Source of the DNA: Escherichia coli
GTDB lineage: Bacteria; Pseudomonadota; Gammaproteobacteria; Enterobacterales; Enterobacteriaceae
NCBI RefSeq assembly: GCF_044324875.1
Contig: NZ_CP172185.1
Length of the DNA stretch: 64,000 bases
Direction: 5' to 3' (one strand)
In this document: piece by piece, positions 3,645 to 20,287 of the stretch
Position numbering within the stretch: the stretch's first letter is position 1
Layout of the letters: each line of letters starts with the position of its first letter
Notes under the pieces: generated by a model
Database searches by the model: none
What the model was told of the DNA's origin: nothing
Seen by the model: only the letters and a program-made list of their open reading frames with translations
Program-made: the position numbers and the translations under genes

Positions 3645-4764
3645 CAGCCAGTACGACCTCCCAGCTTTCTACCCAATTAATGGCCATTTTTTGGTCGAGA
3701 GAGTGGTCAAAGTCAGGATCGTCTTCATTGAAGAATTCGCTGACCATCACCATCTTGCCATTTTCCAGTTCAACAACCGACTCCAGCGTCATGCCTTTGT
3801 AGTTACGCTCGCGAACGTAACCAATCAGCCCTTCAGCGTGGTTGTCGTCGTTAATCTCTTCAACACGTAAGTCTTCCGGGCGCAGCAGAACATGCAGTTT
3901 TTGCCCCGGTTCAACGGCGAAGTTAACGTAGATATTACATTCGCGGCCTTCAACGTTGGCGCGTACGCGCTGCTCGTCTAGACGTTCGATGACAGTGGCG
4001 TTAAACATATTGATTTCGCCAATAAACCCAGCAACAAACAGGTTTTTCGGCTCTTCATAGATTTCACGCGGCGTGCCGTCTTGCTCAATGCGACCATCGC
4101 GCATCACCACAATCCTGTCCGACATGGTGAGTGCTTCTTCCTGGTCGTGAGTCACGAAGACGAATGTAATGCCAAGCTTACGCTGTAACGCTTTCAGCTC
4201 GTTCTGCATTTGCTTGCGCAGTTTGTAATCCAGCGCTGAGAGCGACTCATCCAGCAACAACAGACGAGGCTTGTTAACCACTGCGCGGGCAATGGCGACG
4301 CGTTGCTGTTGACCACCAGAGAGCTGATGCGGTTTGCGTTGAGCGAAGGTTTCCAGCTGCACCATCCGCAGGGCTTCCATCACGCGGGGCGTAATTTCAG
4401 CAGCGGGGGTTTTTTGCATGCGTAACCCAAAGGCCACATTTTCGAACACGGTCATGTGGGGGAAAAGTGCGTAGCTTTGGAAAACAGTGTTCACATAGCG
4501 GTTTTCCGCCGGAACGTGGGTGATGTCCTCGTTATCCAGCATGATGCGTCCGGAATCAACAGTTTCCAGACCTGCAATCAGGCGAAGAACGGTTGTTTTA
4601 CCGCAGCCAGAAGGGCCAAGCAGCGTGAGGAACTCGCCATTGTTGATAGTCAGATCCAGCTGGGGAATGACCTCTTTACCATCAAAGCATTTGCGAATTC
4701 CCGCCAATTGCACCAGCGGTGAAAGCGAACTCGGTTGTTTATTCAATTTTTTACTCTGTCCCAT
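3628..4764 (-). CDS. potA: spermidine/putrescine ABC transporter ATP-binding protein PotA
   Basis: 378 aa with Walker [10 protein letters not shown], signature LSGGQQQR and Walker B LLLLDE. The sequence is recognisable as PotA. Confidence 0.95.
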
Positions 4765-6288: not shown

Positions 6289-7410
6289 TTACCCTTCGAA
6301 GAACCAATACCCGCTATTGACCAGCGCCGCGAGCATCGCGAGGAATGACGGATCTTCCAGCGCATCGCCAAAATTCTCCGCAGTCAGCGCAATGTTGCTG
6401 GCGAGTGCATCCAGTGCCGGACGGTGCGGGGAATCGATCTTCTCACCATTGGCATACACGTCGTCGCCAATGCGCAATACGCGCAGACCACCCAGACGCA
6501 CCAGCACTTCACCTTGTTTCAGCGCATCGTAGATTTCATCCGGCTGATAAGGCGGCTCTGGCGGCGCGATATCCAGTTCATGGCGTGACTGGGATATAAA
6601 CTCCCCAAACCATTGCTTAAAGTGTTCCGGCTGGTTGATCAATTCGAGCATCATCTCACGCAGTTTATCCATCTCTTGCGGCAGAACATCCGCAGGATGA
6701 GCGCGAGGTGAAACATCAGGATCGCTGTAGTAGTTGCCGCCCAGTTCACGTTGCAGCACATAATCGGCAAATCCGCTAATCAGTTCCCGCGTATTTGGTG
6801 CGCGAAAACCGACGGAATAGTTCATCGCATTTTCCAGCGCGTAGCCTTCATGGGGGAATCCTGGCGGAATATAAAGAATATCGCCTGGCTCCAGTTCTTC
6901 ATCAATGATGGCTTCGAACGGATCAACCTGTAACAGATCCGGGTGCGGGCAGTGCTGTTTCATTTGCAGCTTTTCGCCCACTCGCCAGCGACGACGTCCG
7001 GTACCCTGAATGATAAACACGTCGTACTGATCGAGATGCGGGCCGACGCCGCCGCCAGGTACAGAAAAAGAGATCATCAGATCATCAATACGCCAGTCCG
7101 GTAGTTCACGGAACGGTCGCATCAGCGCGGCGGTCGGCTCATGCCAGTGGTTCACTGCCTGCACTAACAATGACCAGTTAGTTTCACCGAGATGATCGTA
7201 GCTTTCGAACGGGCCGTGGCTGACCTGCCATTTGCCATCCTGGTGGCTGACCAGTCGACTGTCGACTTCGCTTTCCATCGCCAGACCCGCCAACTCGTCT
7301 GGAGAGATCGGGTCAATAAAATTATTAAAGCCGCGTTTTAACACCACCGGACGTTTCTGCCAGTGACGTTCAAGAAAATCGGGCCAGTTAAGAGTGAGTT
7401 GGTATTCCAT
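6289..7410 (-). CDS. roxA: ribosomal protein uL16 arginine hydroxylase (JmjC/cupin oxygenase) RoxA/YcfD
   Basis: MEYQLTLNWPDFLERHWQKRPVVLKRGF... matches YcfD. The start is taken at the MEYQ methionine. Confidence 0.9.
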   Translation of the reverse strand: MEYQLTLNWPDFLERHWQKRPVVLKRGFNNFIDPISPDELAGLAMESEVDSRLVSHQDGKWQVSHGPFESYDHLGETNWSLLVQAVNHWHEPTAALMRPFRELPDWRIDDLMISFSVPGGGVGPHLDQYDVFIIQGTGRRRWRVGEKLQMKQHCPHPDLLQVDPFEAIIDEELEPGDILYIPPGFPHEGYALENAMNYSVGFRAPNTRELISGFADYVLQRELGGNYYSDPDVSPRAHPADVLPQEMDKLREMMLELINQPEHFKQWFGEFISQSRHELDIAPPEPPYQPDEIYDALKQGEVLVRLGGLRVLRIGDDVYANGEKIDSPHRPALDALASNIALTAENFGDALEDPSFLAMLAALVNSGYWFFEG

Positions 7411-7611
7411 GTTAAGCATCCACAGGCTGGTATCTGCAACCGATTATAACGGATGCTTAACGTAATGCGTGAAGTATGGGCATACTTTATCAATTAGTGT
7501 TTTTTGCCGTTTCATAATGTTTCAGGTTGTGCATTATGTTTTTGATTATAAACAAATTTGTGATTTTTCTTGTTCCAGCTTGTTTCACGTTGTAGCCCTT
7601 TGTGCAACGAT

Positions 7612-7637
7612 CGGTGTAGTTAATGGTGTAGTTAATT
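7612..7637. repeat. attL core: CGGTGTAGTTAATGGTGTAGTTAATT
   Basis: Identical 26-mer at 18721-18746. It contains a tandem 12-mer GGTGTAGTTAAT x2. The imperfect repeat extends leftwards to 7580 (compare 18689). Confidence 0.85.
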
Positions 7638-7658
7638 GTGATGACCGGATTCAAAATT

Positions 7659-8888
7659 ATGAGCAGAGCACTTAACAAGCTGAGCGATACACAGCTAAGG
7701 AAAATCAACGGCACACCCGCCCAAAAAACAGCCTTTCTTAATGACGGTGGAAACTTGAGCGTCAGGCATTCAACCAGCGGCCTTTTAACCTGGTATTTCA
7801 CTTACAGGGCCGGAACGGGAAGGGGGGCATCACCGGAACGCATTAAGCTGGGAAATTATCCTGATCTGAGCCTGAAATCAGCCAGGGAAAAAGCCGCCCA
7901 GTGTCGCGCATGGCTGGCTGAGGGGAAAAATCCACGTCATGAGATGAATTACACCGTACAGGAAGCGTTAAAGCCTGTAACGGTTGGCGATGCGCTCACC
8001 TACTGGCTTGAGTCGTACGCAAAGGAAAACCGTGTGGATTATGACCCACTGAAAAAGCGGCTAAATAATCACGTAATACAGCACATTGGCCCTATGCCGC
8101 TGGATAAATGCGAGCTACGGCACTGGCTGGCCTGTTTTGATCGGGTGGCAAAGCAAGCCCCTGTTTCCGCCGGGTTCCTGCTACAGACATGCAAACAGGC
8201 GCTTAAGTTCTGCCGGAAGCGGCGCTATGCAATCAGCAACGTTCTTGATGATATGAGTGTGGCTGACGTTGGGAAAAAACCGGATATAGGCGAACGTGTC
8301 TTAAGTACCAAAGAACTGGGCGAATTATTGCAGGCACTGGACAAAAAAATATTTTCCCCTTACTACGTCGCACTAATCCGCCTCCTGATTGTTTTCGGAT
8401 GCCGGACAGTAGAACTGAGGTTATCGGAGATCGGCGAGTGGGATTTTACCGAAATGCTCTGGACCGTTCCGAAGGAGCACAGCAAAACGAAGGTAGCCAT
8501 ATTCCGGCCCATACCGGAAGCGATACTGCCGTTCGTCACGCAGCTGATGGAGCAGAACAGGCACACGGGCTTATTGCTGGGGGAAGTGAAACAGGAAACC
8601 AGCGTGTCGCAGTACGGCAGATTAGTGCACAGGAGGCTTAAACACCCTCACTGGTCACTGCATGACATCCGGCGCACCTTTACAACGATGCTGAACGATT
8701 TAGGCGTGGATCCTCACGTCGTGGAGCAGCTTACAGGCCACCAGATGCCAGGAATGCAGCGAGTTTATAATCATTCCCGTTATCTGGATGCGAAACGCAA
8801 TGCGCTGGATATGTGGACGGAGCGGTTAGGGATACTGGCGGGAGCACATGAAAACGTAACCACGCTACCAGTAACCAGAAGAAAATAA
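7659..8888 (+). CDS. int: P4-type tyrosine integrase (DUF4102 N-terminal arm-binding domain)
   Basis: The N-terminus MSRALNKLSDTQLRK...GNLSVRHSTSGLLTWYFTYR...LGNYPDLSLKSAREKA fits the DUF4102 pattern. The C-terminal catalytic region includes HDIRRTF and YNHSRY. The gene lies immediately inside attL. Confidence 0.9.
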   Translation: MSRALNKLSDTQLRKINGTPAQKTAFLNDGGNLSVRHSTSGLLTWYFTYRAGTGRGASPERIKLGNYPDLSLKSAREKAAQCRAWLAEGKNPRHEMNYTVQEALKPVTVGDALTYWLESYAKENRVDYDPLKKRLNNHVIQHIGPMPLDKCELRHWLACFDRVAKQAPVSAGFLLQTCKQALKFCRKRRYAISNVLDDMSVADVGKKPDIGERVLSTKELGELLQALDKKIFSPYYVALIRLLIVFGCRTVELRLSEIGEWDFTEMLWTVPKEHSKTKVAIFRPIPEAILPFVTQLMEQNRHTGLLLGEVKQETSVSQYGRLVHRRLKHPHWSLHDIRRTFTTMLNDLGVDPHVVEQLTGHQMPGMQRVYNHSRYLDAKRNALDMWTERLGILAGAHENVTTLPVTRRK

Positions 8889-8936
8889 TTTTTTTCGTGT
8901 TTTTTCAGTATGCGCATACTGGATAAGTGCACAGAT

Positions 8937-8970
8937 ACAACGTGAAACAATAAGCAACAACGTGAAACAA
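8937..8970. repeat. two direct copies of ACAACGTGAAACAA just 3' of int (candidate integrase arm-type sites)
   Basis: Copies at 8937-8950 and 8957-8970. The reverse complement TTGTTTCACGTTGT occurs at 7580-7593, and at 18689-18702 with one mismatch; each of those is 18 bp left of an att core. Confidence 0.5.
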
Positions 8971-9262
8971 CCACGAACAAGAGGTCAAAAAGTATACAGA
9001 TTTATAAGTTGCTGATTTTTAATGCTCAACTGGTTTTTTATACATTAGCGAATAACGCTTTAAATAGTGAGAAAAAAGTCATAAAACGAGATTTTATGCC
9101 TTTGCATAATACTGAATTAAAATGATTTTTATTAAAATCACCCCGTTTCTGTAAAATACCCGCCACCAACATTTGCCAACTCTGAATCACCCTGACACAA
9201 TCAGACACATCCCAACGCAATAGAACACGAAATAACTCTTTAAGAAACGAAAGGGGGCAATA

Positions 9263-9451
9263 GTGTTAAGCACTGATCGGTTTATACGTGAAAAAGAATG
9301 CGAAAAGCTAACAGGCCTTAGCCGCTCATGCCGCTACCGCCTGGAAAAGGCCGGACAATTCCCATCACGGCGTAAGCTGGGCGGTCGTTCCGTTGGCTGG
9401 TCTTTATCCGAAGTTCTGGCATGGAAGGAAAGCTGCGAGGCAGTTCACTAA
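9263..9451 (+). CDS. alpA: AlpA-family transcriptional regulator / excisionase-like HTH protein (GTG start)
   Basis: 62 aa. The segment FIREKECEKLTGLSRSCRYRLEKAGQFPSRRKLGGRSVGWSLSEVLAWK is the typical AlpA/Prophage_CP4-57 regulator pattern. An AAGGGGG Shine-Dalgarno lies upstream. Confidence 0.8.
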   Translation: MLSTDRFIREKECEKLTGLSRSCRYRLEKAGQFPSRRKLGGRSVGWSLSEVLAWKESCEAVH

Positions 9452-9716
9452 AAAGACTGGCGGCACACAGCCGCCACCCATCCACTAATACAGAGATTTA
9501 ACCATGAAGACTGGATATACGCCCGAACAGGGGCGGGGCTTCGTTCGGCCTGGTGAAACTGAAAAACAACAAAATCGCGGTTTTTCAGGCATAAAAAAAG
9601 CGGCCCCGATAAGGAGCCGCCTTTCTGAACAATTAACCTACAGCGCAAAAAATGAATCTGAGCAGTGGGATTATATCAACCGTGCAACGAAGCGCCACAA
9701 TTGCCGGATAACGGGC

Positions 9717-9744
9717 AAAGAAAAGGCCACCTGTCACGGTGGCC
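9717..9744 (-). terminator. intrinsic terminator downstream of the minus-strand RHH gene
   Basis: Stem GGCCACC / GGTGGCC. On the minus strand it is followed by TTTTCTTT. It lies 34 nt after the stop at 9778. Confidence 0.6.
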
Positions 9745-9777
9745 AATGTGATCAGTGTGGTGGCTTGCTGGTGGCTA

Positions 9778-9969
9778 TCAACCTTTGGGTTCTATACCGC
9801 GCCGCTTTAGTTCAGCGCGCCCCAACTCTTTAAGCCAGTTGGCTAGGCTTATGCCGTCGCTCTGCGCTTCTTTGTCGAATTGCTCTTTTAGCTCTGGAGA
9901 AATTCGCATTCTGAATTGTGGGGATTGCCCATCACCCTTAGGGCTTTTATCACGTTTGATTGTTGACAA
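9778..9969 (-). CDS. Arc/MetJ-type ribbon-helix-helix DNA-binding protein (TTG start on the ORF track)
   Basis: PQFRMRISPELKEQFDKEAQSDGISLANWLKELG fits the beta-strand plus two-helix RHH pattern. It is the only island gene on the minus strand, placed divergently to the early operon. Confidence 0.5.
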   Translation of the reverse strand: MSTIKRDKSPKGDGQSPQFRMRISPELKEQFDKEAQSDGISLANWLKELGRAELKRRGIEPKG

Positions 9970-10103
9970 GTGGTCACCTATTAAATTAGCCTTTCTATTG
10001 TTAGGTGGTCACCTTAACACGGGGACACTTAAAAAAGCAAAGCCCGAAGGCGCTAGGAACACCAACGGGCTTCTAACCACAAACCGTTATGAGAGGTAGT
10101 TTT

Positions 10104-10301
10104 ATGGCTGTAAGACAGCATACCCCACGACTAGCGCACACACAAACCGCCTTTGTGTGGCGTTTTCTGGCACTGAGTGCCGGAGAATCTCAAATCATCC
10201 ACGTAACCGCCTGGACGGAACGCGAAGCGCGTAGCCGTTGCCCGTCCGGTTGTGTTGCTGTATTCGCCGCCCGTATTCGTCAGGGGGTGTACCATGATTA
10301 A
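10104..10301 (+). CDS. Icd-like (host cell division inhibitor-like) small protein of P4-like elements
   Basis: The segment VTAWTEREARSRCPSGCVAVFAARI resembles the conserved core of Icd-like proteins annotated in P4-type islands, as I remember it. ATG 10104 follows GAGAGG. The longest ORF starts at 10089. Confidence 0.4.
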   Translation: MAVRQHTPRLAHTQTAFVWRFLALSAGESQIIHVTAWTEREARSRCPSGCVAVFAARIRQGVYHD

Positions 10302-10662
10302 CCTGTCACTTACCGATCTTAACCGCGTTCAGTTTCGTGAGAAATTTACCGGACAGCTACTCGTCAATGTGGAGAACGGGCGCATAGTGCGTAATTATCA
10401 CCTGCCGGATGGTGCAATTGCCGGAAGCGTTGAAGCATTGCTGGAACTGGCGGAACGTGCGCGACTGATTAAGCCGTCAACGAGCCATCACGATGATGAT
10501 CTGCATTTTACCGGATGTATGGTGAGTCACTACGAAAACGGCGTCGAGGTATCCTGCGAACGGCTGCGTGATGATTGCTGTTTCGGCACACTGCCGGAAT
10601 TTATCGAATTGCTGACCAGTTGCGGATATCAGGTTATTCAGGGGGTGCGCCATGTGCAATAA
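10291..10662 (+). CDS. hypothetical protein
   Basis: The ATG overlaps the upstream stop region (translational coupling). It is part of a tightly packed same-strand operon. No family was recognised. Confidence 0.5.
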   Translation, partial: TMINLSLTDLNRVQFREKFTGQLLVNVENGRIVRNYHLPDGAIAGSVEALLELAERARLIKPSTSHHDDDLHFTGCMVSHYENGVEVSCERLRDDCCFGTLPEFIELLTSCGYQVIQGVRHVQ

Positions 10663-11107
10663 CATCCGTCCGGACGCAGCAGGCGAAGCCATCATAACGC
10701 TAATGCACGCGCTGATTGATATTTCATGCACGGCAGCAACCGCAGAAAAACACATTACCAGAGAGCCGGAATATACAGGGGCAATAATCCCGCATTCGCT
10801 GGCCTACGCACAGCTAACCGCTGATATGGCGCTGAATGAGGCTAAAGCCATCCTGATTGCTGATTGTGAAAATGGGGGGGGGGTTATGCGTGATGATCGT
10901 TTTAATTCCCTGAAACAGGAATTTTCCGGCGTTCCTGATAATGCGGCTGATGCGCTTTCGTCAATATCTGAAATTATGCGGGTGGCTTTTTTCTTTCTTT
11001 GCACTGATGAGCACAGGGATACAGGGCTAAATATTCTTGATATCGCCGCTAATTATGCTGATTTCGTAACGGAAACTGTTTTAAGAAAAACGACGGACGG
11101 GGATTAA
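10652..11107 (+). CDS. hypothetical protein
   Basis: 151 aa. It overlaps the upstream gene by 11 nt. No family was recognised. Confidence 0.5.
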   Translation: MCNNIRPDAAGEAIITLMHALIDISCTAATAEKHITREPEYTGAIIPHSLAYAQLTADMALNEAKAILIADCENGGGVMRDDRFNSLKQEFSGVPDNAADALSSISEIMRVAFFFLCTDEHRDTGLNILDIAANYADFVTETVLRKTTDGD

Positions 11108-11108
11108 T

Positions 11109-11342
11109 ATGCGTGATATTTACCACGAAACAATAGACCGCGCATTTCTTGCACTTTCTCACAGTGAAAATATGTTGGAAATATTGCGCATATGTCTTGA
11201 AACGCTTGGAGATAATGAACGTGATAAACAGAAATCAATGATTGTCACGGCATTAATAACGCTTCTTGAGCCTGTAATAAATGAGTTGCAGGAAATAGAG
11301 ACATTACACGACCAGTATAAAGCGCCCCACACCGGAGAATAA
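11109..11342 (+). CDS. hypothetical protein (helical, acidic)
   Basis: 77 aa. It starts 1 nt after the preceding stop. No family was recognised. Confidence 0.45.
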   Translation: MRDIYHETIDRAFLALSHSENMLEILRICLETLGDNERDKQKSMIVTALITLLEPVINELQEIETLHDQYKAPHTGE

Positions 11343-11347
11343 AAAAC

Positions 11348-11635
11348 ATGAAAAATAAAAATTCTGGCGTTAATGCCAGCGGCCCCGCTCGTCCTGAAAT
11401 CCGTCCCGGCGATATTTTCCGTGATAACTACGGCGGCACGGTAATGATTAAGGGCGTGGAAGAACGGCGCGTAACCTACCGCCGTGATGGCTACGAATAT
11501 GACTGCGTTATGCCTGTTTATCAGTTCCGGCGTGATTTCACGCTGGTGGGCCATCGTAAAGCCGTTAATCAGAAACGTGCTGCAAGTTATATCCGCAAAA
11601 TCCGTGAAATGCTGGTCGCAGGGGGTAAGAAATGA
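11348..11635 (+). CDS. hypothetical protein, possibly DUF4222-like
   Basis: 95 aa. The pattern RPGDIFRDNYGGTVMIKGVEERRVTYRRDGYEYDCVMPVYQFRRDF resembles the small DUF4222 proteins of lambdoid phages; this is a low-certainty recollection. Its stop overlaps the rep start. Confidence 0.4.
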   Translation: MKNKNSGVNASGPARPEIRPGDIFRDNYGGTVMIKGVEERRVTYRRDGYEYDCVMPVYQFRRDFTLVGHRKAVNQKRAASYIRKIREMLVAGGKK

Positions 11636-13038
11636 AACTTGCACCGAACGTAAAACTGTTACCGAAAGATAAACACACTGAGGCGGTTATTTTTGCGGGT
11701 GATAATGCTCACTCCTTTGCAGAACATTACATGATTGCACAGGCCAAAAAAGCAGGCGATCCCATCCCTCCGGTTTACCTGGGCCGTTATCAGTTAAGCG
11801 AACTGGACAACTTACAGATTGTTGATGAAGGACGATACAGGGCAAAGGTCATACGCGCCGGAAACCTGGACGATATGCAGATGCTGACCATTGCCACAAA
11901 ACTGGCGATCGCCGGAGTCCAGGAGGCGCGCCTACTTTCTGAAAATTTCGAACTGCTGGAGGACTGGAGCGACCAGCTACCACGACTACGGGAAACATGG
12001 GAGAGAGGGGAAAGCCTGGTCATGAATGGCGGAAAGCGAAAAATCACACTTCCCATCTCATGGGGTTCTGAGGGATTCGATGCGCAGCAAAGCTACGTCA
12101 TTAAGGGGCTTATTCCGGCTGAGTCATTATGCAGCACCTACGGGGCCAGCGGTTCTTATAAATCGTTCCTCGCCATTTCCTGGTCGTGCCATGTTGCCAC
12201 AGGTATGGCATGGGGAGGCCGCAGGGTAAGTAAGGGTGCGGTTATCTATATCGCTGGCGAAGGCAGCATGGGCGTAAAACGCCGCGTTAAGGCGTGGGAG
12301 ATAACCCACGACAAGGTGGTTACAGATTTGTGCATCATTAACGCGCCTGTTTTCCCTGCATCGCCTGACTATGTGGAGCAGGTTATCAGGACTGCCGGAC
12401 TTGTTAAGAGCAGAACGGGCGAAAATGTGCGGCTGATTGTGATCGACACGCTGGCCCGTTGCTTTGGTGGGAATGATGAAAATGATTCCCGTGATATGGG
12501 CGCATTTATCCAGGGGTGTGACGCGATAAAGCAGGCCACAGGGGCCACGGTGCTGGTGGTTCACCATTCCGGCAAGGATGAAACAAAGGGGGCGCGTGGT
12601 TCCAGTGCATTCCGTGCCGCGCTTGATGCAGAGTACCGAATCAGCCGCGAAAATTCAGACGTTACAGCACTGGTCGCAGCATGTACGAAGATGAAGGACG
12701 CAGAGGAGCCAAAAGAGAGCGCATACGACCTTAAAAGCGTGGAGGTGTTCACCGATACAGATGGCGAAGAAATTGTGTCCATGGTGGTGATTGACGTTCC
12801 CCGCGCCCCTGCTGAACTGGAGCGCATCGAGGAGGCAGGCAACAAGACGGAAAACCATACCGCGCTATGGGGGTGCATCCGTTCACGCACACAGAACGGC
12901 GACAAGTGCACGATCCCGCTGTTACGTGATGACATGAAACGGCTTGGGTATGACGTGAAAAATATGCGGCGATGGTTAGCCAAACTGGAAAAAGACGCCG
13001 TGATTTACATTGATGGTGATGATGTAGGACCACTGTAA
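11632..13038 (+). CDS. RepA-like (AAA_25/RecA-fold) replication ATPase/helicase
   Basis: 468 aa with a Walker A-like GASGSYKS, Walker B LIVIDTLARC and VLVVHHSGKDETKGARGSSAF, typical of RepA/DnaB-like helicases. An iteron array follows immediately. Confidence 0.7.
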   Translation: MKLAPNVKLLPKDKHTEAVIFAGDNAHSFAEHYMIAQAKKAGDPIPPVYLGRYQLSELDNLQIVDEGRYRAKVIRAGNLDDMQMLTIATKLAIAGVQEARLLSENFELLEDWSDQLPRLRETWERGESLVMNGGKRKITLPISWGSEGFDAQQSYVIKGLIPAESLCSTYGASGSYKSFLAISWSCHVATGMAWGGRRVSKGAVIYIAGEGSMGVKRRVKAWEITHDKVVTDLCIINAPVFPASPDYVEQVIRTAGLVKSRTGENVRLIVIDTLARCFGGNDENDSRDMGAFIQGCDAIKQATGATVLVVHHSGKDETKGARGSSAFRAALDAEYRISRENSDVTALVAACTKMKDAEEPKESAYDLKSVEVFTDTDGEEIVSMVVIDVPRAPAELERIEEAGNKTENHTALWGCIRSRTQNGDKCTIPLLRDDMKRLGYDVKNMRRWLAKLEKDAVIYIDGDDVGPL

Positions 13039-13237
13039 AAAGTGAGTAGTAAAAGTGAGTAATGGTGAGGTTTTTACAAAATATTAACACAATTACTCAC
13101 TTTCTCACCTGTATACATGCTCAAAAGTGAGCAGTGAAAAAACACTTATGAAACATGCACATATAAAACACAAAAATCTCAAGTGAGACGAAGTGAGACG
13201 CTTTAAAAAGTGAGTAGTAAAAGTGAGAGATGGTGAG
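13037..13237. repeat. iteron-type replication origin candidate (AGTGAG repeats flanking an AT-rich core)
   Basis: A 33-nt repeat AAAAAGTGAGTAGTAAAAGTGAG(TA/AG)ATGGTGAG occurs at 13037-13069 and 13205-13237. An inverted CTCACTTTCTCACC lies at 13096-13109, AAGTGAGCAGTGA near 13125, and a tandem AAGTGAGACG x2 at 13181-13200. Confidence 0.65.
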
Positions 13238-13239
13238 CA

Positions 13240-13608
13240 ATGAATAAAAACCGAACAGCAGGACAAAATACCGAAGGTAAATTTATGAACACTGAAATTG
13301 AAACACTGAGCATATCAACTGCCCTTCCTGGCTGGTGGGCTAAGTTCAAAGACGACGACGGCACGGAATGGTATAGCCCAATTGCTGCATGGGCGCTTTG
13401 TGATATCCACCATTTCGGCACCGGAGATACTTACCGCGAAATCTTACCCGTGCTGACCAGTGAGCTGGGCATGAGTCCGCATAGTCCTGATGAGGGAATG
13501 TGCGAGTGCCTTTATCTGCCGGATAAGAAGTTTGTTCACTGTGGTGAATCGATGGTATTTGCCTGGTATCCGGTTAACGACAGCAGCAATAGCGGTACTC
13601 TGGAGTAA
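13240..13608 (+). CDS. hypothetical protein
   Basis: 122 aa (alternative start at 13285). Same-strand operon context. No family was recognised. Confidence 0.45.
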   Translation: MNKNRTAGQNTEGKFMNTEIETLSISTALPGWWAKFKDDDGTEWYSPIAAWALCDIHHFGTGDTYREILPVLTSELGMSPHSPDEGMCECLYLPDKKFVHCGESMVFAWYPVNDSSNSGTLE

Positions 13609-13611
13609 ATC

Positions 13612-13854
13612 ATGAAGGTAAACCACAAAAAGACAGATCACCGCGCCATTGACCTTACAGAGCACTGGCTGAGGGTGGCGATAAAAATCATCGACCGCAA
13701 CACGGGGGAAGGATACGCGAAAGCACATCCCGAACTGATAAGTGCATTCATGACCACAGCGGCGGCAAACTTTGCCACGCTGACAGAGCGGGATATTGCC
13801 GAAGCAGAACAGGTAACAACCATCAACGTTAAAACCAGTGAGGTGGAATCATGA
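13612..13854 (+). CDS. hypothetical protein
   Basis: 80 aa. It overlaps the ssb start by 4 nt (ATGA). Confidence 0.45.
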   Translation: MKVNHKKTDHRAIDLTEHWLRVAIKIIDRNTGEGYAKAHPELISAFMTTAAANFATLTERDIAEAEQVTTINVKTSEVES

Positions 13855-14261
13855 CAGCACAGATAGCGGCTTACGGGCGGCTGGTGGACGACCCGCAGGT
13901 AAAACAGACCAGTAAGGGTACACCGATGACGCTGGCGCGTATGGCGGTATCTTTACCATGCGGCCAGGCACAGGACGGACAGGCGACGTTATGGTTATCG
14001 GTCATCGCATTTGGCAAACAGGCCGACTTTCTGGCTAAACATCAAAAAGGCGACGTTGCCAGCGTATCCGGCACGATGCAGGTCAGCCAGTGGACCGGAC
14101 AGAACGGGGAAACGCGGCAGGGTTATCAGGTTATTGCAGACAGCGTAATCAGTGCCCGTGCGGCACGTCCTGGCGGGAACAGACGCAAAACCACAGGCAC
14201 ACAGGGTAATCAGCCACCAGCGGGAGGCGATGACCCTTACGGTGATGATATTCCGTTCTGA
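13851..14261 (+). CDS. ssb: single-stranded DNA-binding protein
   Basis: 136 aa with an OB-fold N-terminal region (AYGRLVDDPQ...TLWLSVIAFGKQA), a Gly/Pro/Gln-rich linker and the canonical acidic tip DDIPF. Confidence 0.85.
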   Translation: MTAQIAAYGRLVDDPQVKQTSKGTPMTLARMAVSLPCGQAQDGQATLWLSVIAFGKQADFLAKHQKGDVASVSGTMQVSQWTGQNGETRQGYQVIADSVISARAARPGGNRRKTTGTQGNQPPAGGDDPYGDDIPF

Positions 14262-14271
14262 GGGGGTGACG

Positions 14272-14544
14272 ATGGTACATGACCGCATAGCGGAGGAACT
14301 CGAGGCAAAAGGATTTTACCGGAGGGCGGCGGCGCGATGGGGTGAAGTTATGAGGCTGGTGAGCACTGACAAGGAGCGCGAACAGGTGGCAATGCGACGG
14401 CTGGAATGTTCCCTGAAGGCACAGAGGCCACCGGAGCCGCCGGATGATTTAGGCGCTCTGAAAAGGTCAGTTAATCGCACTGAAAAACAAATGGGGATAG
14501 CTGGTATTGGCAAAGCAATATGGCGCAACTACCCGCAGAAGTGA
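14272..14544 (+). CDS. PerC-family transcriptional activator-like protein
   Basis: MVHDRIAEELEAKGFYRRAAARWGEVM... matches the PerC/Pch signature (LE.KG.WRRAA.RW..V) as I remember it. The start is taken at ATG 14272 after GGGGGTGA. Confidence 0.55.
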   Translation: MVHDRIAEELEAKGFYRRAAARWGEVMRLVSTDKEREQVAMRRLECSLKAQRPPEPPDDLGALKRSVNRTEKQMGIAGIGKAIWRNYPQK

Positions 14545-14550
14545 GCACAC

Positions 14551-14573
14551 AGCCGGAGCAATCCGGCTTTTTT
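14551..14573 (+). terminator. intrinsic terminator ending the early/replication operon
   Basis: AGCCGGA-GCAA-TCCGGCT followed by TTTTT. Confidence 0.8.
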
Positions 14574-14584
14574 ACGCCTAAAAA

Positions 14585-14621
14585 AAGCCCGATAAGGTCA
14601 AAGGGGGCTTATCGGGCTTTT
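14585..14621 (+). terminator. second hairpin terminator
   Basis: 12-bp stem AAGCCCGATAAG / CTTATCGGGCTT followed by TT. Confidence 0.6.
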
Positions 14622-14784
14622 GTAGAGGAGGTTTTTTATGGTGCACTGGCACACATGATCGGGATAATCATTTCATAATTTGCAACATAACTCAATATTG
14701 TTGCGCAAAATGCAATCATGATTATAATCAGGACTGGATGAACATCCAGTTATGATTTTTTAAGTCAAAGAGGAATTTCTGACT

Positions 14785-14991
14785 ATGGCAGAAGAGAAAA
14801 AAGGCGGGGTGACGGTCTACATAAGCCCCGACATCGTGGAGGCGCTCAAGGAACGCCACCAGCAGAATGTAAAAGCAGGCATTGCGGCAGGACTTGATCC
14901 GCTGGCGATGGTTGAGCCGTCAACAGGCTGGCAGGTGCGTACCTATTTACGTGCGGCGCTGGGTATCAATCAGGTTCACGGAGGTGAATAA
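14785..14991 (+). CDS. hypothetical small protein, first gene of the capsid operon
   Basis: 68 aa. AGAGGA Shine-Dalgarno. Its TAA overlaps the capsid ATG (TAATG). Confidence 0.5.
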   Translation: MAEEKKGGVTVYISPDIVEALKERHQQNVKAGIAAGLDPLAMVEPSTGWQVRTYLRAALGINQVHGGE

Positions 14992-16046
14992 TGACAGGCA
15001 AAGCAAAGGCACTTACAACTAACCAGCTTTTCGCGTACCTGAATCGCGGGGATATTTCGGAATATAAATTTAGTCCGCTGTTTACCACGCTGTTTTTCCC
15101 GAACGTGGCGACCTTCAACACCCAAAACATCATGCTGGACACCCTGGACATTGAAGAGGTTACGATGTCAGCGTTCTGTTCTCCTATGGTGGGTAGTCAG
15201 GTCCAGCGCGATAAAGGGTACGAAACCAGCACGATTAAACCAGGCTACATGAAGCCAAAGCACGAAATCGATCCAACAAAGACCATCATGCGCATGGATG
15301 GAGAAGATCCGGCACAGCTTAACGATCCAACTTACCGCCGTATGCGCCTGATTACTGGCAACATGCGCCGCCAGATAAACGCCATTAAGGCGCGCGTGGA
15401 ATGGCTGGCGGTGAATGCGGTAACGACCGGAAAAAACATCATTGAGGGCGAAGGCATAGAACGCTATGAAATCGACTGGAAAATACCGGAAAACTGCATC
15501 ATACAGCAGGCCAGTGGTAAAAAATGGTCCCAGCAGGATAAAGACATGCACGACCCAATCTATGACATCGAGCTTTATGCTGATCAGGCAGGTTGCCCCG
15601 CCAACGTCATGATTATGGGCGGTGAGGTATGGCGCACATTACGCAGCTTTAAAAAATTCCGTGAACTGTACGATCTTTCCCGTGGATCAGAATCCGCCGC
15701 CGAGCTGGCCTGTAAAAACCTGGGCGAAGTGGTGAGCTTTAAAGGCTATCTTGGTGATCTGGCCCTTATCGTCTATTCCGGCAAATACACTGACAGCGAC
15801 GGGACCGAAAAATATTTCCTTGAGCCTGATTTGCTGGTCCTGGGTAACACCAACAATAAAGGGCTGGTGGCATATGGTGCGATTATGGATCAGGAAGCGG
15901 TAAGAACGGGCGCAACGCAAAACATGTACTACCCGAAAAACTGGATTGAGGACGGCGATCCGGCGATTGAGTACGTGCAGACGCACAGCGCACCGCAGCC
16001 TGTACCGGCAGATATTCGCAAATTTGTTACCGTCAAAATTGCTTAA
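14991..16046 (+). CDS. major capsid protein, lambda gpE family
   Basis: 351 aa. It aligns by eye along its length with lambda gpE: FSPLFTTLFFPN vs FDPLFLRLFFRE, KPGYMKPKHEIDP vs TPGYVKPKHEVNP, YPKNWIEDGDPA..SAPQP vs YPKNWVTTGDPA..SAPLM, and C-terminal FVTVKIA vs FVSVQLA. Confidence 0.9.
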   Translation: MTGKAKALTTNQLFAYLNRGDISEYKFSPLFTTLFFPNVATFNTQNIMLDTLDIEEVTMSAFCSPMVGSQVQRDKGYETSTIKPGYMKPKHEIDPTKTIMRMDGEDPAQLNDPTYRRMRLITGNMRRQINAIKARVEWLAVNAVTTGKNIIEGEGIERYEIDWKIPENCIIQQASGKKWSQQDKDMHDPIYDIELYADQAGCPANVMIMGGEVWRTLRSFKKFRELYDLSRGSESAAELACKNLGEVVSFKGYLGDLALIVYSGKYTDSDGTEKYFLEPDLLVLGNTNNKGLVAYGAIMDQEAVRTGATQNMYYPKNWIEDGDPAIEYVQTHSAPQPVPADIRKFVTVKIA

Positions 16047-16057
16047 CGGGGGATTCT

Positions 16058-16393
16058 ATGGACGCTCCATACATTGAGTTATTTTCAGGCAGCCAACAGG
16101 TATCCACGACGCTGGTACATTTTGCCGCTGATGCTGGCGTTATTCAGGAATTTACCCCGCTGATGCTGGCAGACAATGGCGAGTTTAAGCCGTGGGATGG
16201 TAAGGAATCTGGCAAGGCTGTTTATCTGACCTCGTACCCTGTGGACACGTCAAAGCAGAAATCAGCACAGTGTTACAAGACGGGGATATTCAATATTGCC
16301 GCCGTTAACTGGCCTGACAGCGTCGACACCGATGCGAAAAAATGCGCCGCCTTTGCGGGTTCCGGCGTATCCGTTCAGCCGCTGGCCCGATAA
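16058..16393 (+). CDS. head decoration protein, lambda gpD family
   Basis: 111 aa (gpD is about 110). TPLMLADNGEFKPWDG vs lambda TPLMLDTSSRKLVAWDG; YKTGIFN..VNWP...KKCAAFAGSGVSV vs YKSGTFR..VLWP...KKRTAFAGTAISI. Confidence 0.85.
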   Translation: MDAPYIELFSGSQQVSTTLVHFAADAGVIQEFTPLMLADNGEFKPWDGKESGKAVYLTSYPVDTSKQKSAQCYKTGIFNIAAVNWPDSVDTDAKKCAAFAGSGVSVQPLAR

Positions 16394-16467
16394 GCAGGGG
16401 GAACGATGGCACAAACCAGGGCGATGACGGCGACATCTATCGCATACTGAAAACCATCTGAGACAAG

Positions 16468-16490
16468 GCCGGAGAAATCCGGCTTTTTTT
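16468..16490 (+). terminator. intrinsic terminator after the capsid operon
   Basis: GCCGGA-GAAA-TCCGGC followed by TTTTTTT. It is the same hairpin family as the terminator at 14551. Confidence 0.8.
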
Positions 16491-16710
16491 GCGGGTCCTT
16501 TCCGGCATGTGGACCCGTTACGGGGCGTCGACCTCGCACGTTTTCGCTATTTATGAAAATTTTCCGGGAAAAAGCATGTCAGTTCTTCTTGTTATTAACA
16601 TATTGTTTTTAAAGAAATAACTATCAAGAAAGAAACGACATCATAATGATGAAAAATCTGTTTTTTTTGGCATTTCATGTCGTAACTGATTTTTGATAAG
16701 GAATTGCTGA
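16491..16710 (+). other. lambda-type cos region (cosQ-like 16493-16505, cosN cohesive-end 12-mer 16523-16534, cosB-like R/IHF region to about 16700)
   Basis: GCGGGTCCTTTCCGG...GTTACG|GGGCGTCGACCT|CGCACGTTTTCGCTATTTATGAAAATTTTCCGG compares with lambda ACGGGTCCTTTCCGG...GTTACG|GGGCGGCGACCT|CGCGGGTTTTCGCTATTTATGAAAATTTTCCGG (lambda recalled from memory). R2-like AAGAAAGAAACGACAT. It lies directly upstream of the Nu1 homologue, as in lambda. Confidence 0.8.
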
Positions 16711-17295
16711 ATGAATGTTAATAAAAAGAGGCTTGCCGAAATTTTTAACGTGGACCCGCGGACGATTGAACGCTGGCAGTCACAGGGGCTTCCTTGCGTC
16801 TCCAAAGGCAGTAAGGGCATTGAATCTGTATTTGATACTGCCATGGCAATTCAGTGGTATGCGCGGAGGGAAACTGATATCGAAAACGAAAAGCTCCGCA
16901 AAGAACTGGACGATTTGCGTGCGGCAGCGGAGTCAGATTTACAACCCGGCACCATTGACTATGAACGCTATCGGCTCACAAAAGCGCAGGCAGATGCGCA
17001 GGAACTTAAAAACGAGCGCGATCGCGGTGACGTGATTGATACAGAGTTTTGCATGTACGCGCTTTCAAAACTGGCGAGTCAGATTTCATCAATCATGGAC
17101 AGCCTCCCGCTTACTATGCAAAGGAGCTTCCCACAGATGACCCCCGCCATGCTGGATGGCCTGAAAAAAGAAGTTGTCAGAGCCTGTAACGCATGCACAA
17201 AACTTGATGAAAACATCCCGCGAATGCTGTCCGATTATCTGATGGAAACTACCGGAAATGTGCCTGATAAGTTTCAGCCGGATAAAGACAAGTAA
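16711..17295 (+). CDS. terminase small subunit, lambda Nu1 family
   Basis: [28 protein letters not shown]... vs lambda MEVNKKQLADIFGASIRTIQNWQEQGMP. A long conserved block is shared: IENEKLR...[26 protein letters not shown]. 194 aa vs 181 in lambda. Confidence 0.9.
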
Positions 17296-17313
17296 CGTAG
17301 TGCACAATGACCG

Positions 17314-17336
17314 AAGCCAGTTTACTGACTGGCTTT
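17314..17336 (+). terminator. hairpin after the Nu1-like gene
   Basis: AAGCCAGT-TTACTG-ACTGGCTT followed by T. The U-tract is short. Confidence 0.4.
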
Positions 17337-17635
17337 CAGCGTTGCGCTGGTGGGCGTTATGCGTCAGTGATAAACGTCTCCAATATTACTGATATTCGAC
17401 ATCCCCACCTCTCCACACCAGCTCGAATATCATTTTTCTCATTAAAAACAGGACATTAAAAACTGGTCAGATGTCCCATAAAAAGCCAAATGGGACAGGT
17501 CAAAAGCTTTTTTTGCAGTAATTTTCAATAGGTTACTTGATGTGGTGGTGTCCCATGAAAATTCAAAAATCAGCCGTTTTCCGCGATGCTCCCGCCCCGT
17601 GGCAGGGCACCCCACAAGGAGGACCCGCCATCACT

Positions 17636-17935
17636 ATGGAGGACATGACCATGACCGAGACCGAAGCGCTCGGGATAATCCGCAGTATTACCGGAATCAG
17701 CCAGCAGGCTGGCGAACAGGAGGCCACGCAGCCGGACAGCGTGATCGCCGAAAATTACGTGCGTGTTGTTGCTGATGTAATGCGCCGTGATGGTATTGAG
17801 CTTAACGGCGTGGATATGCGCGACATACGAATCAGAGTACTAGAGTTGCTGGCATACCGTCGACGCGTGGCGATGTATCAGGAGAGCGCGAAAAACACTT
17901 ATCAGTGGAAGAAGCCGGAGCGGTTACGGCGGTAA
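17636..17935 (+). CDS. hypothetical protein (accessory position between packaging gene and attR)
   Basis: About 99 aa from ATG 17636, with AAGGAGG 13 nt upstream. The longest ORF starts at 17537. No family was recognised. Confidence 0.4.
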   Translation: MEDMTMTETEALGIIRSITGISQQAGEQEATQPDSVIAENYVRVVADVMRRDGIELNGVDMRDIRIRVLELLAYRRRVAMYQESAKNTYQWKKPERLRR

Positions 17936-17937
17936 CT

Positions 17938-18510
17938 GGTTGATATTTTCGAAATTCGCCAGCGGCGAACATCGGGGAAACCAGCCTAACCAGTTGATTC
18001 TTTCGGAAACAGCCATTGGCGGAATCCGGCGCGGTAACTTGCTGATATTCCCGATAACGCAAAATTGCGCTGGCTACATCCCTCACATCTGAGGACTGAT
18101 AATGCGACATTGCGCTGGCTGGCAAAGTGCAAAATTGCACGATGGCCTAACCCATTGATTATTTCGAAAACCTGCAATGCAGGAAATCGGGGAAGTAAGC
18201 CTAAGCTATTGATTCTTTCGGAAACCTCAATTTGAGGAAGTCGGCGCGGTAACTCGCTGAACTTAAAGCAAACCTCAAAATTGAGCTGGCTGAATAATCA
18301 TTATGATTACGCAGATGATTAAGGAATGACCGAAGGCGGAAATTCGCCTGTGGTTGATGGGGGAGTTGCAGATCTGCAACTCGACCATGAAACTACGGAA
18401 ACTACCCGTAGTTTGGGTAGTAAGAGTAACACCCAGATTTTGGGACTTACTCGTGATACCCAAATTTGGAGTATCGGTGGCAACCATAACGACTTTCGTT
18501 ACGGTTGATG
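17938..18510. repeat. non-coding array of about 15 short palindromes/hairpins embedded in a duplicated scaffold
   Basis: Two homologous units (about 17941-18076 and 18155-18292) share flanks such as TTGATTCTTTCGGAAAC and CGGCGCGGTAACT. They carry different palindromes at the same three positions. Further palindromes continue to a 12-bp-stem hairpin at 18481-18507. Confidence 0.7.
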
Positions 18511-18720
18511 CTTTTACCCCATTGGGGGAAAGGTATTACGATAATCATAACACCTACCGAACAGGTAAAGCCCACCAGCCTGATTGACATTTAACCGGAA
18601 AAAAAGCCAGGTAGCCCCGTTATGTGGATCCCCATATCGACAGCAACGCCCCCTTAAAATTACCCGCCTTTATATTTCTTGTGCCTATTTGTTCCACGTT
18701 GTTTCATACAGTGCGCCGAA

Positions 18721-18746
18721 CGGTGTAGTTAATGGTGTAGTTAATT
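18721..18746. repeat. attR core: CGGTGTAGTTAATGGTGTAGTTAATT
   Basis: Identical to 7612-7637. Confidence 0.85.
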
Positions 18747-18826
18747 TGCGATTTTTGGCACTTTTGTTTGTGTATATTTTTAATTAAATCAATACATTAA
18801 CTAATATCGGTGATAAAAGGGCATAT

Positions 18827-20287
18827 TTATTCATCTTTCGGCGCAGAATGCTGGCGACCAAAAATCACCTCCATCCGCGCACCGCCCAGCATGCTCTCTC
18901 CGGCGACGATTTTACCCTCATATTGCTCGGTGATTTCGCGGGCTACCGCCAGCCCTACACCTTGCCCAGGGCGTAAAGTATCAACCCGTTGACCACGGTC
19001 GAAAATGACCTCTCGCTTGCTTAATGGAATACCGGGGCCATCATCCTCGACCACAATATAGAGATGCTCGTCGGTTTGCCTTGCAGATATTTCGACAAAC
19101 TCGAGGCAATATTTACAGGCATTATCCAGCACGTTGCCCATCACCTCGACAAAATCGTTCTGCTCACCGACAAAGCTGATCTCTGGCGAAATATCGAGAG
19201 AGATATTGACCCCTTTGCGTTGATACACTTTGTTCAGCGCCGAGGTGAGATTGTCCAGCAGTGGGGCGACCGGATGTAGCTCGCGGCTAAGCAATGTCCC
19301 GCCGCGCATACTGGCACGATGCAGGTAGTAGCCAATTTGCTGTGAAATGCGACTGATTTGCTCCAGCATTACCGGCTCAGCATCACTGACGCTCATCTTC
19401 TCACTACGCAGAGAACGCAGCGTACTTTGCAGCACCGCCAGTGGCGTTTTCAGACTATGGGTCAGGTCGGTGAGCGTTGTACGATATTTGTCGTAACGTT
19501 CGCGTTCACTTTTTAACAATCGGTTCAGGTTTCGTACCAGACTGGTCAGTTCTCGCGTTGTGGCTGGATTGAGCAATTCGCGGTTATGTTCTTCCAGTTC
19601 GCGGACTTCTTTTGCCAGGGCTTCGATGGGGCGTAAACTCCACCTGGCGGCGACCCACAGCAGCGGGATCACTAACAGCAGATTGGCTGAGAGCACATAG
19701 ATAAACCAGCTCCAGACCATATAGGAACTTTTTAGCTCCACCGGAATGGTATCCACCACCACAATGGTCAACTTTGGCATCCGCGATGTTGCCGGGTAGA
19801 CGTTTACCGCCACCGAGTGGGTCATCTCCGCGTCGTCATCATCTTCCCGCACTTCCTGCAACTGTTGCTGTATCGAATGATCTCCACTCAGCAAGAGGCT
19901 GGTATCGTTAACATCCGCTTCAATTTCATGAAAACCATTCGATTTCAGCCAGTCAGGCTGGATCATCTTCATCAGCCAGGGCACGTCACGTTGCGCCCAT
20001 AAAAGCTGCCCGTTCTCATCATAAATTAGCGTCATAGTGGGGCTTTGCTTGTCGATATTTTCGGGTAACTCGACATGCAACTTATTGTTTTCCCACTTCG
20101 CAAGGGTATAGAACAGATTGCTCTCGCCACGTAACAGCCGAAACGTAGTTTTATCGAAACTGACGCTATAACCGATCAGCGCGACCATTCCGTAGGCAAG
20201 CGAAAGCACCAGTACAACCGCTGCCGTTGCCAATAGAAAACGTACCCGCAGCGAGAGCGGGAAAAAAAGACGCAGTAATTTTTTCAT
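18827..20287 (-). CDS. phoQ: sensor histidine kinase PhoQ
   Basis: 486 aa, recognisable as the PhoQ sequence. H-box [10 protein letters not shown] and a C-terminal ATPase domain. Confidence 0.95.

Follow-up and report, generated by a model that had tools for sequence, protein, structure and literature searches.

Five small, tightly packed open reading frames (ORFs) occupy positions 10104-11635 of a 64,000-nucleotide stretch of Escherichia coli DNA (RefSeq contig NZ_CP172185.1; "the window" below means this whole stretch) and run directly into a replication gene, rep. Our preferred reading, to which we give a probability of about 0.6, is that this block forms the front of the early, replication-proximal operon of an 11-kb phage-inducible chromosomal island (PICI), in which bracket genes enclose swappable modulators. 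Two invariant bracket genes encoding basic proteins (ORF1 and ORF5) surround zero to five swappable genes for acidic proteins. The bracket genes belong to families with published phenotypes, and the five genes form part of a PICI early operon of coupled genes.

Bracket genes and exchangeable cassettes

All five ORFs lie on the + strand. They are the Icd-like ORF1 (10104..10301; 65 aa, isoelectric point [pI] 10.6, with an ATG following GAGAGG), the acidic ORF2 (10294..10662; 122 aa), the fused gene ORF3 (10652..11107; 151 aa, comprising an N and a C half), the acidic ORF4 of a narrow orphan family (11109..11342; 77 aa) and ORF5 of the DUF4222/RgdR family (11348..11635; 95 aa, pI 10.2), ORF2 and ORF4 being optional cassettes. 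The predicted pI exceeds 10 for ORF1 and ORF5 and lies at 4.4-5.4 for ORF2-4. ORF1 overlaps ORF2 by 8 nt (ATGATTAA) and ORF2 overlaps ORF3 by 11 nt; gaps of 1 nt and 5 nt separate ORF3 from ORF4 and ORF4 from ORF5, and ORF5 overlaps rep by 4 nt (ATGA). A G-rich Shine-Dalgarno sequence is found at every start, CAGGGGGT preceding ORF2, ORF3 and rep, and the same pattern of overlaps and gaps is annotated in strains CFT073 and O157:H7. A preliminary description of this DNA, made from the sequence alone, had proposed five packed ORFs coupled to rep; the packing is confirmed by the sequence and the coupling is borne out by the overlaps and abutments kept in CFT073 and O157, but the ORF2 start that it gave, 10291, is an in-frame ACC. 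ORF2 begins instead at the ATG at 10294, which RefSeq also uses for an identical homologue.

The five ORFs are real genes, as judged from their family matches together with ratios of non-synonymous to synonymous substitution rates (dN/dS) of 0.19-0.39. All five match PHROG families (E values from 1e-28 to 1e-57). Against relatives, the median dN/dS, taken over many (tens of) independent alleles, is 0.39 for ORF1, 0.26 for ORF2, 0.25 and 0.19 for the N and C halves of ORF3, 0.21 for ORF4, 0.31 for ORF5 and 0.09 for rep, so that the conservation and purifying selection among related islands on which the preliminary description had made its proposal depend are indeed observed. DNA of the block is present in 1657 of 5426 complete E. 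coli genomes, or about a third. No Pfam or NCBIfam model matched ORF2-4, none of the PADLOC defence models matched ORF1-5 or rep, and an all-against-all hhalign comparison of the small genes revealed no paralogy, except that the two ORF2 halves matched each other weakly. At loci anchored on rep in 80 other Enterobacterales species the small genes were almost never present, and these loci therefore gave no comparative signal. A literature search on CFT073 genes c1490-c1493 yielded nothing beyond RgdR/C1493, discussed below.

The bracket-and-cassette arrangement emerges from the comparison of related islands. Among 83 related loci, an ORF1-type gene is the first cistron of the operon in 82 and ORF5 is found in 79, while ORF4 is present in 59 and ORF2 in 18; across these islands ORF2-4 are present, absent or reordered. 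Identity varies gene by gene and independently (relative to CFT073 it is 99% for ORF4 and 52% for ORF1), and ORF2-4 alleles range from 48% to 99% identity, each gene having its own, independently recombining set of alleles. In a second set of 80 loci, retrieved through DUF4222, the middle genes are again variable and reordered, and in all 80 the N-terminal domain of Rep directly follows DUF4222, in islands with a helicase as initiator as well as in those with a P4-type primase. This domain (residues 1-126, encoded at 11632-12009) has no Pfam match and is common to the RepA-helicase-type and P4-primase-type initiators of sister islands, at 41-99% identity. Searches of 50,697 phage records with ORF2-4 gave no DNA match and no tblastn protein match, P4 included. 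To judge from these comparisons, ORF2-4 occur only in satellites, where they are under purifying selection and yet individually dispensable among related islands.

Both families that the preliminary description had tentatively named for the bracket genes proved correct. ORF1 matches the NCBIfam model phage_ICD_like (NF033153) with 64.3 bits against a cutoff of 25 (7.8e-18), and the P4 "cI gene product (AA 1-137)" (cI ORF137) matches the same model at 7.8e-21, which places it in the family of ORF1. A tblastn search with ORF1 did not retrieve icd of phage P1, so only the NCBIfam model links the two. In the P1 immI operon (c4-icd-ant), icd is reportedly the first cistron and translationally coupled to the downstream gene; blocking its translation is said to silence the operon by polarity, and over-expressed Icd is said to block cell division. 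Both systems thus have a first cistron of the Icd family, although the window lacks the c4 RNA and the antirepressor. In our reading ORF1 would serve at once as the gated leader cistron and as an effector that arrests growth or division. Among the 50,697 phage records ORF1 matched only one packaged cf-PICI-like record, and it found no match in a PDB sequence search at E values up to 10. A terminator-like hairpin within ORF1 (10139-10159) was discarded, being weak and not conserved in the CFT073 allele.

Many relatives have the Icd-like domain at the C terminus of a longer reading frame, open over 320-480 codons. Such long frames are found at 7338-8624 of related locus L082, 1968-3071 of L085, 1983-3437 of L090 and 8215-9189 of L245; the one in L090 contains a Phage_ASH domain, and those in L082, L085 and L245 have no Pfam match. 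In CFT073 the long frame runs antisense through two annotated small genes, a YlcI/YnfO regulator among them.

ORF5 matches Pfam DUF4222 (PF13973) with 90.3 bits against a gathering threshold of 27 (5.6e-26). It is 63% identical both to RgdR (ECs1581), a 99-aa DUF4222 protein encoded just before rep in O157, and to C1493 of CFT073, and in all three islands the gene is the last small one before rep at the roxA-phoQ site. From this identity and the equal position, ORF5 belongs to the RgdR family and is the positional orthologue of RgdR and C1493. The preliminary description, which had counted ORF5 among genes of unknown function, was too pessimistic here, since RgdR and C1493 bind DNA non-specifically, activate LEE1 and repress motility (Flockhart et al., 2012; PMC3378721). 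DUF4222 ORFs also end on the start of a lambda-O-like initiator gene in temperate phages, including e14, SfII, mEp390 and Klebsiella phages. A PDB sequence search with ORF5, at E values up to 10, gave no match.

The acidic genes and the poly-G junction of ORF3

ORF3 is a fusion of two genes. Its N half (10652..10873, + strand) corresponds to a separate gene of about 73-79 aa in CFT073 and ECCNB12-2, and its C half (10886..11107, + strand) to a separate gene of 73-79 aa in the same strains. The two genes overlap there, the first ending in ...ADCENGGGYA* and the second starting with MRDDRF..., whereas in the window and in O157 the halves are in frame and the junction is read through (ENGGGVMRDD). 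The junction, of the form TGATTGTGAAAAT-G(n)-TTATGCGTGATGATCGT with conserved flanks at 10848-10920, is marked here by a G10 tract (10874..10883, + strand), which is the longest homopolymer in the window and also the Shine-Dalgarno sequence of the ATG at 10886. Across 63 loci, n is 7 (26 loci), 8 (20), 9 (11), 10 (5) or 11 (1), some alleles of the tract being interrupted. With 7 or 10 G residues the genes are fused, with 8 or 11 they are split, and with 9 the first gene runs through 12 codons of the third frame. A long homopolymer that alters the reading frame with its length is a trait of phase-variable (contingency) loci.

Within each of four haplotypes, defined by identical 441-nt flanks, two G numbers occur (7/9, 10/9, 9/8 and 9/8), and homopolymer assembly error may have contributed to these differences. 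One and the same fused protein is encoded by five complete genomes of the O157/O145 clone, within which no rapid phase variation was seen. The roughly 14 codons flanking the tract show no synonymous diversity, as compared with 0.2-0.37 elsewhere, and the DNA around it folds no better than shuffled sequences (z = 0.89). The tract is also the Shine-Dalgarno sequence of the second gene; both ORF3 halves can probably be made at any tract length, and this would explain why all lengths persist. For the N half a helical hairpin is predicted (AlphaFold2, AF2, with a predicted local distance difference test score, pLDDT, of 70-84 for residues 10-70); Foldseek matches to the ATP-synthase c subunit were set aside as reflecting a generic helical hairpin.

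ORF2 looks like a tandem duplication of a unit of about 55 aa. Both halves carry an FTG-x6-ENG...EL motif, read by eye, and hhalign aligned 41 columns of the N half with the C half at a probability of only 37.5%. In an alignment of ORF2 relatives (A2), many one-unit and hybrid forms resemble the products of deletions between repeats at different registers, the O157 counterpart being a one-unit form, and in related loci ORF2 sometimes sits between the two ORF3 halves. ORF4 matches phrog_2196 (7e-36) and is 99% identical to its CFT073 counterpart. Its family is narrow, with 9 clusters only among 1.84 billion representative proteins.

The island and its relatives

The island (7563-18746, 11.2 kb) lies between roxA and phoQ and is delimited by 75-nt direct attachment (att) repeats of 79% identity that share the perfect 3' core GGTGTAGTTAATGGTGTAGTTAATT. 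The attL-side repeat (7563..7637; roxA to its left) has its partner at 18672-18746, with phoQ to its right. A tyrosine integrase (7638..8888, + strand; Pfam Arm-DNA-bind_3 and Phage_integrase), 95% identical to the integrases of the CFT073 and O157 islands, is followed by an AlpA-family regulator (9263..9451, + strand; Pfam Phage_AlpA, 5e-18, 65.2 bits against a cutoff of 21). AlpA is the activator of the PICI cycle in EcCICFT073, where its expression is switched on by the helper (Fillol-Salom et al., 2018; PMC6092414). A divergent gene (9778..9969, - strand) encodes a putative ribbon-helix-helix (RHH; Arc/HicB/YlcI-like) repressor, with weak, sub-threshold Pfam matches to HicB and Arc and a PHROG match to an Arc-like repressor (4.6e-07); terminator hairpins follow it, with a terminator at 9744-9725. 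Between this gene and ORF1, the repeat search (family D1) and reading of the sequence delimit the putative promoter/operator region of the operon (9963..10014, + strand). It contains two 17-nt direct repeats (TTGACAAGTGGTCACCT and TTGTTAGGTGGTCACCT), which lie 35 bp apart and include GGTCACC, and a TTGACA -35 box without a good -10 box inside the first of them. The repeats are candidate operator or activator sites.

Downstream of the block, rep (11632..13038, + strand) encodes a RepA-type helicase (AAA_25), as assigned through Pfam, PHROG and the comparison of related loci, and is followed by a replication origin (13033..13250, + strand; repeat families D1-D4) laid out as in the E. coli PICIs, whose general organisation was defined by Fillol-Salom et al. 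(PMC6092414). The origin has an AT-rich palindromic stretch between two sets of AAGTGAG iterons, with a 37-nt repeat at 13033 and 13201. The rest of the island encodes SSB, PerC and lambda E-, D- and Nu1-like proteins; the latter three are the only virion-related products, and tail and lysis genes are absent. An Rfam scan of the whole island (7400-18900, E values up to 1) returned no RNA element. Two near-identical hairpin and T-run terminators (GCCGGAG-AAATCCGGCTTTTTT), at 14547-14573 after perC and at 16463-16489 after a decoration-like gene, would divide the island into transcription units. Near its right end, at 17933-18291, two direct copies of a 113-nt repeat with 74% identity lie 215 nt apart, accompanied by three 23-nt repeats (GATAACGCAAAATTGCGCTGGCT); this might be a cos or packaging-related region.

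The preliminary description had regarded the element as a PICI, and its features agree with this: an integrase with att repeats at a specific site, alpA by int, an own rep with an iteron origin, the site and gene order of the CFT073 and O157 islands, and a size within the range of about 10-15 kb, with packaging-hijack genes only, that defines Gram-negative PICIs of the EcCICFT073 type. By sequence, it is a cos-type PICI and a sister of EcCICFT073 (Fillol-Salom et al., 2018) and of O-island 51 (OI-51)/CP-933C of O157:H7, which occupy the same roxA/ycfD-phoQ site; OI-51 and the CFT073 island have both been placed between ycfD and phoQ (PMC3378721). All three share the order int, alpA, divergent small regulator, Icd-like gene, small overlapping ORFs and DUF4222 gene, continuing with rep, ori, SSB, PerC and lambda E/D-like head genes, to which the window adds a Nu1-like small terminase. 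Alleles are mosaic: relative to the window, CFT073 has an ORF1 of 52% identity, an ORF3 N half of 48% identity, an unrelated 76-aa gene in place of the duplicated ORF2, split rather than fused ORF3 halves (G8 versus G10) and a P4-type primase as Rep instead of a helicase. In the ORF5-family gene, both EcCICFT073 and OI-51 have RGD where the window has PGD.

The left operon of P4 (vis/ORF88, cI-ORF137, epsilon, orf151, orf106, alpha) resembles the window in its AlpA/Vis-type gene, its Icd-like first cistron (NF033153), its small ORFs with 8-nt overlaps and its replication protein, and the position of the block corresponds to that of epsilon, orf151 and orf106, in agreement with the satellite-typical position previously proposed. 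However, epsilon, orf151 and orf106 are unrelated to ORF2-5, P4 has no DUF4222 gene, and its leader contains isrK and the C4/CI RNA where the window instead has the divergent RHH gene.

Mechanism, alternative explanations and wider meaning

We propose that the operon would be silent until a helper phage turns on AlpA, as extrapolated from the published work on EcCICFT073. Transcription would then start from the promoter around 9963-10014, adjoining the divergent RHH repressor gene, and the cistrons would be translated as a chain, each stop overlapping or abutting the next start with its G-rich Shine-Dalgarno sequence; because of this arrangement, Rep synthesis may be tied to translation of the upstream cistrons. 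ORF1 would act as gated leader and growth-arrest effector, and ORF5, the closest studied relatives of which reprogramme host transcription, as a DNA-binding modulator of the host or of replication. ORF2-4 would most likely be small protein-binding modulators of host or helper proteins.

Other explanations, not mutually exclusive, have to be weighed against this proposal. The block could be an abortive-infection or superinfection-exclusion module, in which an incoming phage protein triggers the Icd-like protein, together with the small ORFs, to stop growth and so protect the host population. A locus of strain ECOR61, described as a "prophage-encoded superinfection exclusion system", is required for cell death triggered by a phage accessory gene (Silas et al., bioRxiv 10.1101/2023.04.06.535777). 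Expression of phage orf24 inhibits growth there; suppressor insertions hit the Icd-like gene (366 nt) as well as two small ORFs that overlap (186 and 192 nt), and six linked genes including a primase gene were all needed to rebuild the effect, which disappeared when the Icd-like gene was lost. The gene order recurs in the window, where an Icd-like gene likewise comes first and overlapping small ORFs lead up to the replication gene, a likeness of architecture. The Icd-like protein of ECOR61 has 121 aa, with an N-terminal extension, and a primase as its partner, whereas ORF1 lacks the extension and the window has a helicase gene; the PADLOC result likewise speaks against a defence function, and the ECOR61 phenotype may itself amount to PICI induction, as uncontrolled replication of EcCICFT073 harms growth and viability (PMC6092414). 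We regard an exclusion module as possible but doubtful. The replication-accessory explanation, which we likewise entertain only tentatively, holds that the conserved genes, above all ORF5/DUF4222, aid initiation (origin remodelling, helicase loading or control of Rep) and are not effectors acting on host or helper. It draws on the constant position of DUF4222, which always overlaps or directly precedes an initiator gene, be it that of a PICI RepA helicase, a P4-type primase or a lambda-O-like phage protein, on the basic character of ORF5, on the non-specific DNA binding of RgdR (PMC3378721) and on the conservation of the adjoining Rep N-terminal domain across initiator types. On the other hand, RgdR expressed alone alters host transcription and motility (PMC3378721), most of the distant RepA loci in other genera have no DUF4222 upstream, and the variable acidic genes are left unexplained. 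In addition, the cloned rep and ori of EcCICFT073 drive plasmid replication (PMC6092414), although the clone may have included the upstream DUF4222 gene.

The preliminary description had proposed, among other roles, helper sensing or derepression, meaning that at least one of the ORFs would act on a helper prophage as P4 epsilon acts on the P2 repressor. All that suggests it is the positional analogy with epsilon, orf151 and orf106, with their 8-nt overlaps, and the thought that small acidic proteins could be anti-repressors. Comparison by hhalign gave a probability of at most 1.7% against epsilon for every window family, and the best match to any of the three P4 proteins was that of DUF4222 with orf151 (9.6% probability). 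Furthermore, in this PICI family the helper induces the satellite via AlpA, and not the reverse (PMC6092414), the candidate genes are missing from many functional-looking islands, and ORF2-4 lack homologues in the 50,697 phage records, which makes helper derepression improbable. Host takeover or interference, proposed in the same place, receives indirect support from the host phenotypes of RgdR and from the architecturally similar death locus of ECOR61. A non-coding explanation, under which certain ORFs would be open by chance alone or would be pseudogenes in decay within an intergenic leader, might be argued from their shortness, from the missing Pfam and NCBIfam matches of ORF2-4 and from the pseudogene state of ORF4 in ECCNB12-2, but it is contradicted by the dN/dS values and opposed by the PHROG matches and the conserved coupling of starts and stops; we consider it extremely improbable.

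Several observations count against our preferred reading of the block as bracket genes and modulators of a PICI early operon. The function of ORF2-4 is deduced only from charge, size, distribution and position. The structure prediction and Foldseek comparison recommended in the preliminary description did not help: the AF2 models of ORF2 (pLDDT 57; two beta-beta-alpha repeats) and ORF3 (pLDDT 62; two helical domains, connected where the tract lies by a disordered linker) are of low confidence and convey secondary structure only, and neither matched the PDB in Foldseek at E <= 0.001. At 65 aa, ORF1 represents the short form and lacks the long N-terminal extension that the ECOR61 effector has, and the transposon insertions in ECOR61 could act by polarity on the primase gene. 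In P4 (8420-8692 of locus L258) and in a sister PICI (3003-3191 of L090), the Icd-like gene is closely preceded by isrK and C4 RNAs, and C4 (RF01695) as positive control scored 74.9 and 82 bits, respectively, but the Rfam scan did not find these RNAs in the window, CFT073, O157 or related loci L001, L085, L088 and L257; the regulatory/immunity leader itself thus seems to be swappable. As regards ORF5, residue 20 matters in RgdR, the natural R20C variant of strain ED1a being inactive on type III secretion and unable to bind DNA (PMC3378721). ORF5 reads E-I-R-P-G-D, with P at residue 20, where O157 and CFT073 have RGD (20-22). Finally, the phenotypes of RgdR (LEE, motility) may be side effects of some other role in the life cycle of the satellite.

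A further DUF4222 frame is found in E. coli K-12. Prophage e14 contains an unannotated 59-aa DUF4222 ORF (4002-4181 of locus L246, NC_000913.3 about 1204001-1204180; Pfam 8.6e-19), which occupies another frame within the 3' half of ymfM (a gene annotated as "cell division inhibitor") and overlaps the start of ymfN/oweE. In this e14/lambdoid ymfL-ymfM-oweE(O) arrangement, as in the window, the DUF4222 ORF ends atop the start of a replication initiator gene; e14 differs in that the ORF is unannotated and nested within ymfM, and in having neither an Icd-like gene nor acidic cassettes. Between K-12 and mEp390, changes in the overlap number 25 synonymous and 18 non-synonymous when read in the DUF4222 frame, compared with 3.5 and 34.5 in the ymfM frame. 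Close relatives differ by 1-5 changes per pair, almost every one of which is silent in the DUF4222 frame alone, one PhiR29_2 substitution being the opposite. This substitution pattern indicates that the selected frame of the overlap is DUF4222 and not ymfM. The clone used to assign filamentation to ymfM consisted of the ymfM reading frame and, as the coordinates place the domain within that frame, it contains the whole DUF4222 domain. It is conceivable, though rather unlikely, that in temperate phages and satellites alike the DUF4222/RgdR proteins form a general, replication-coupled factor directed at the host. The hidden DUF4222 protein might then cause, or share in causing, the SOS-inducible SfiC division block that is now attributed to YmfM.

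The new details concern the cassette architecture, the poly-G fusion, the duplication in ORF2 and the links of ORF5 to RgdR and of ORF1 to P4 cI-ORF137. The best-studied Gram-negative PICI carries the block, as does an O157 island affecting colonisation. The RgdR literature consulted treats OI-51 as a cryptic prophage of P4 ancestry, and the consulted papers on PICIs and on phage accessory genes do not mention RgdR or DUF4222; the ORF5-RgdR and ORF1-P4/P1 Icd links thus join separate lines of work. The poly-G junction provides a natural allelic series of fused and split forms, and for the early functions of Gram-negative PICIs the bracket-and-cassette layout offers six candidate gene families, few enough to be tested. 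If the wider role of DUF4222 holds, PICIs would possess two proteins that arrest division or growth, the Icd-like and the DUF4222 protein, on either side of the swappable modulators.

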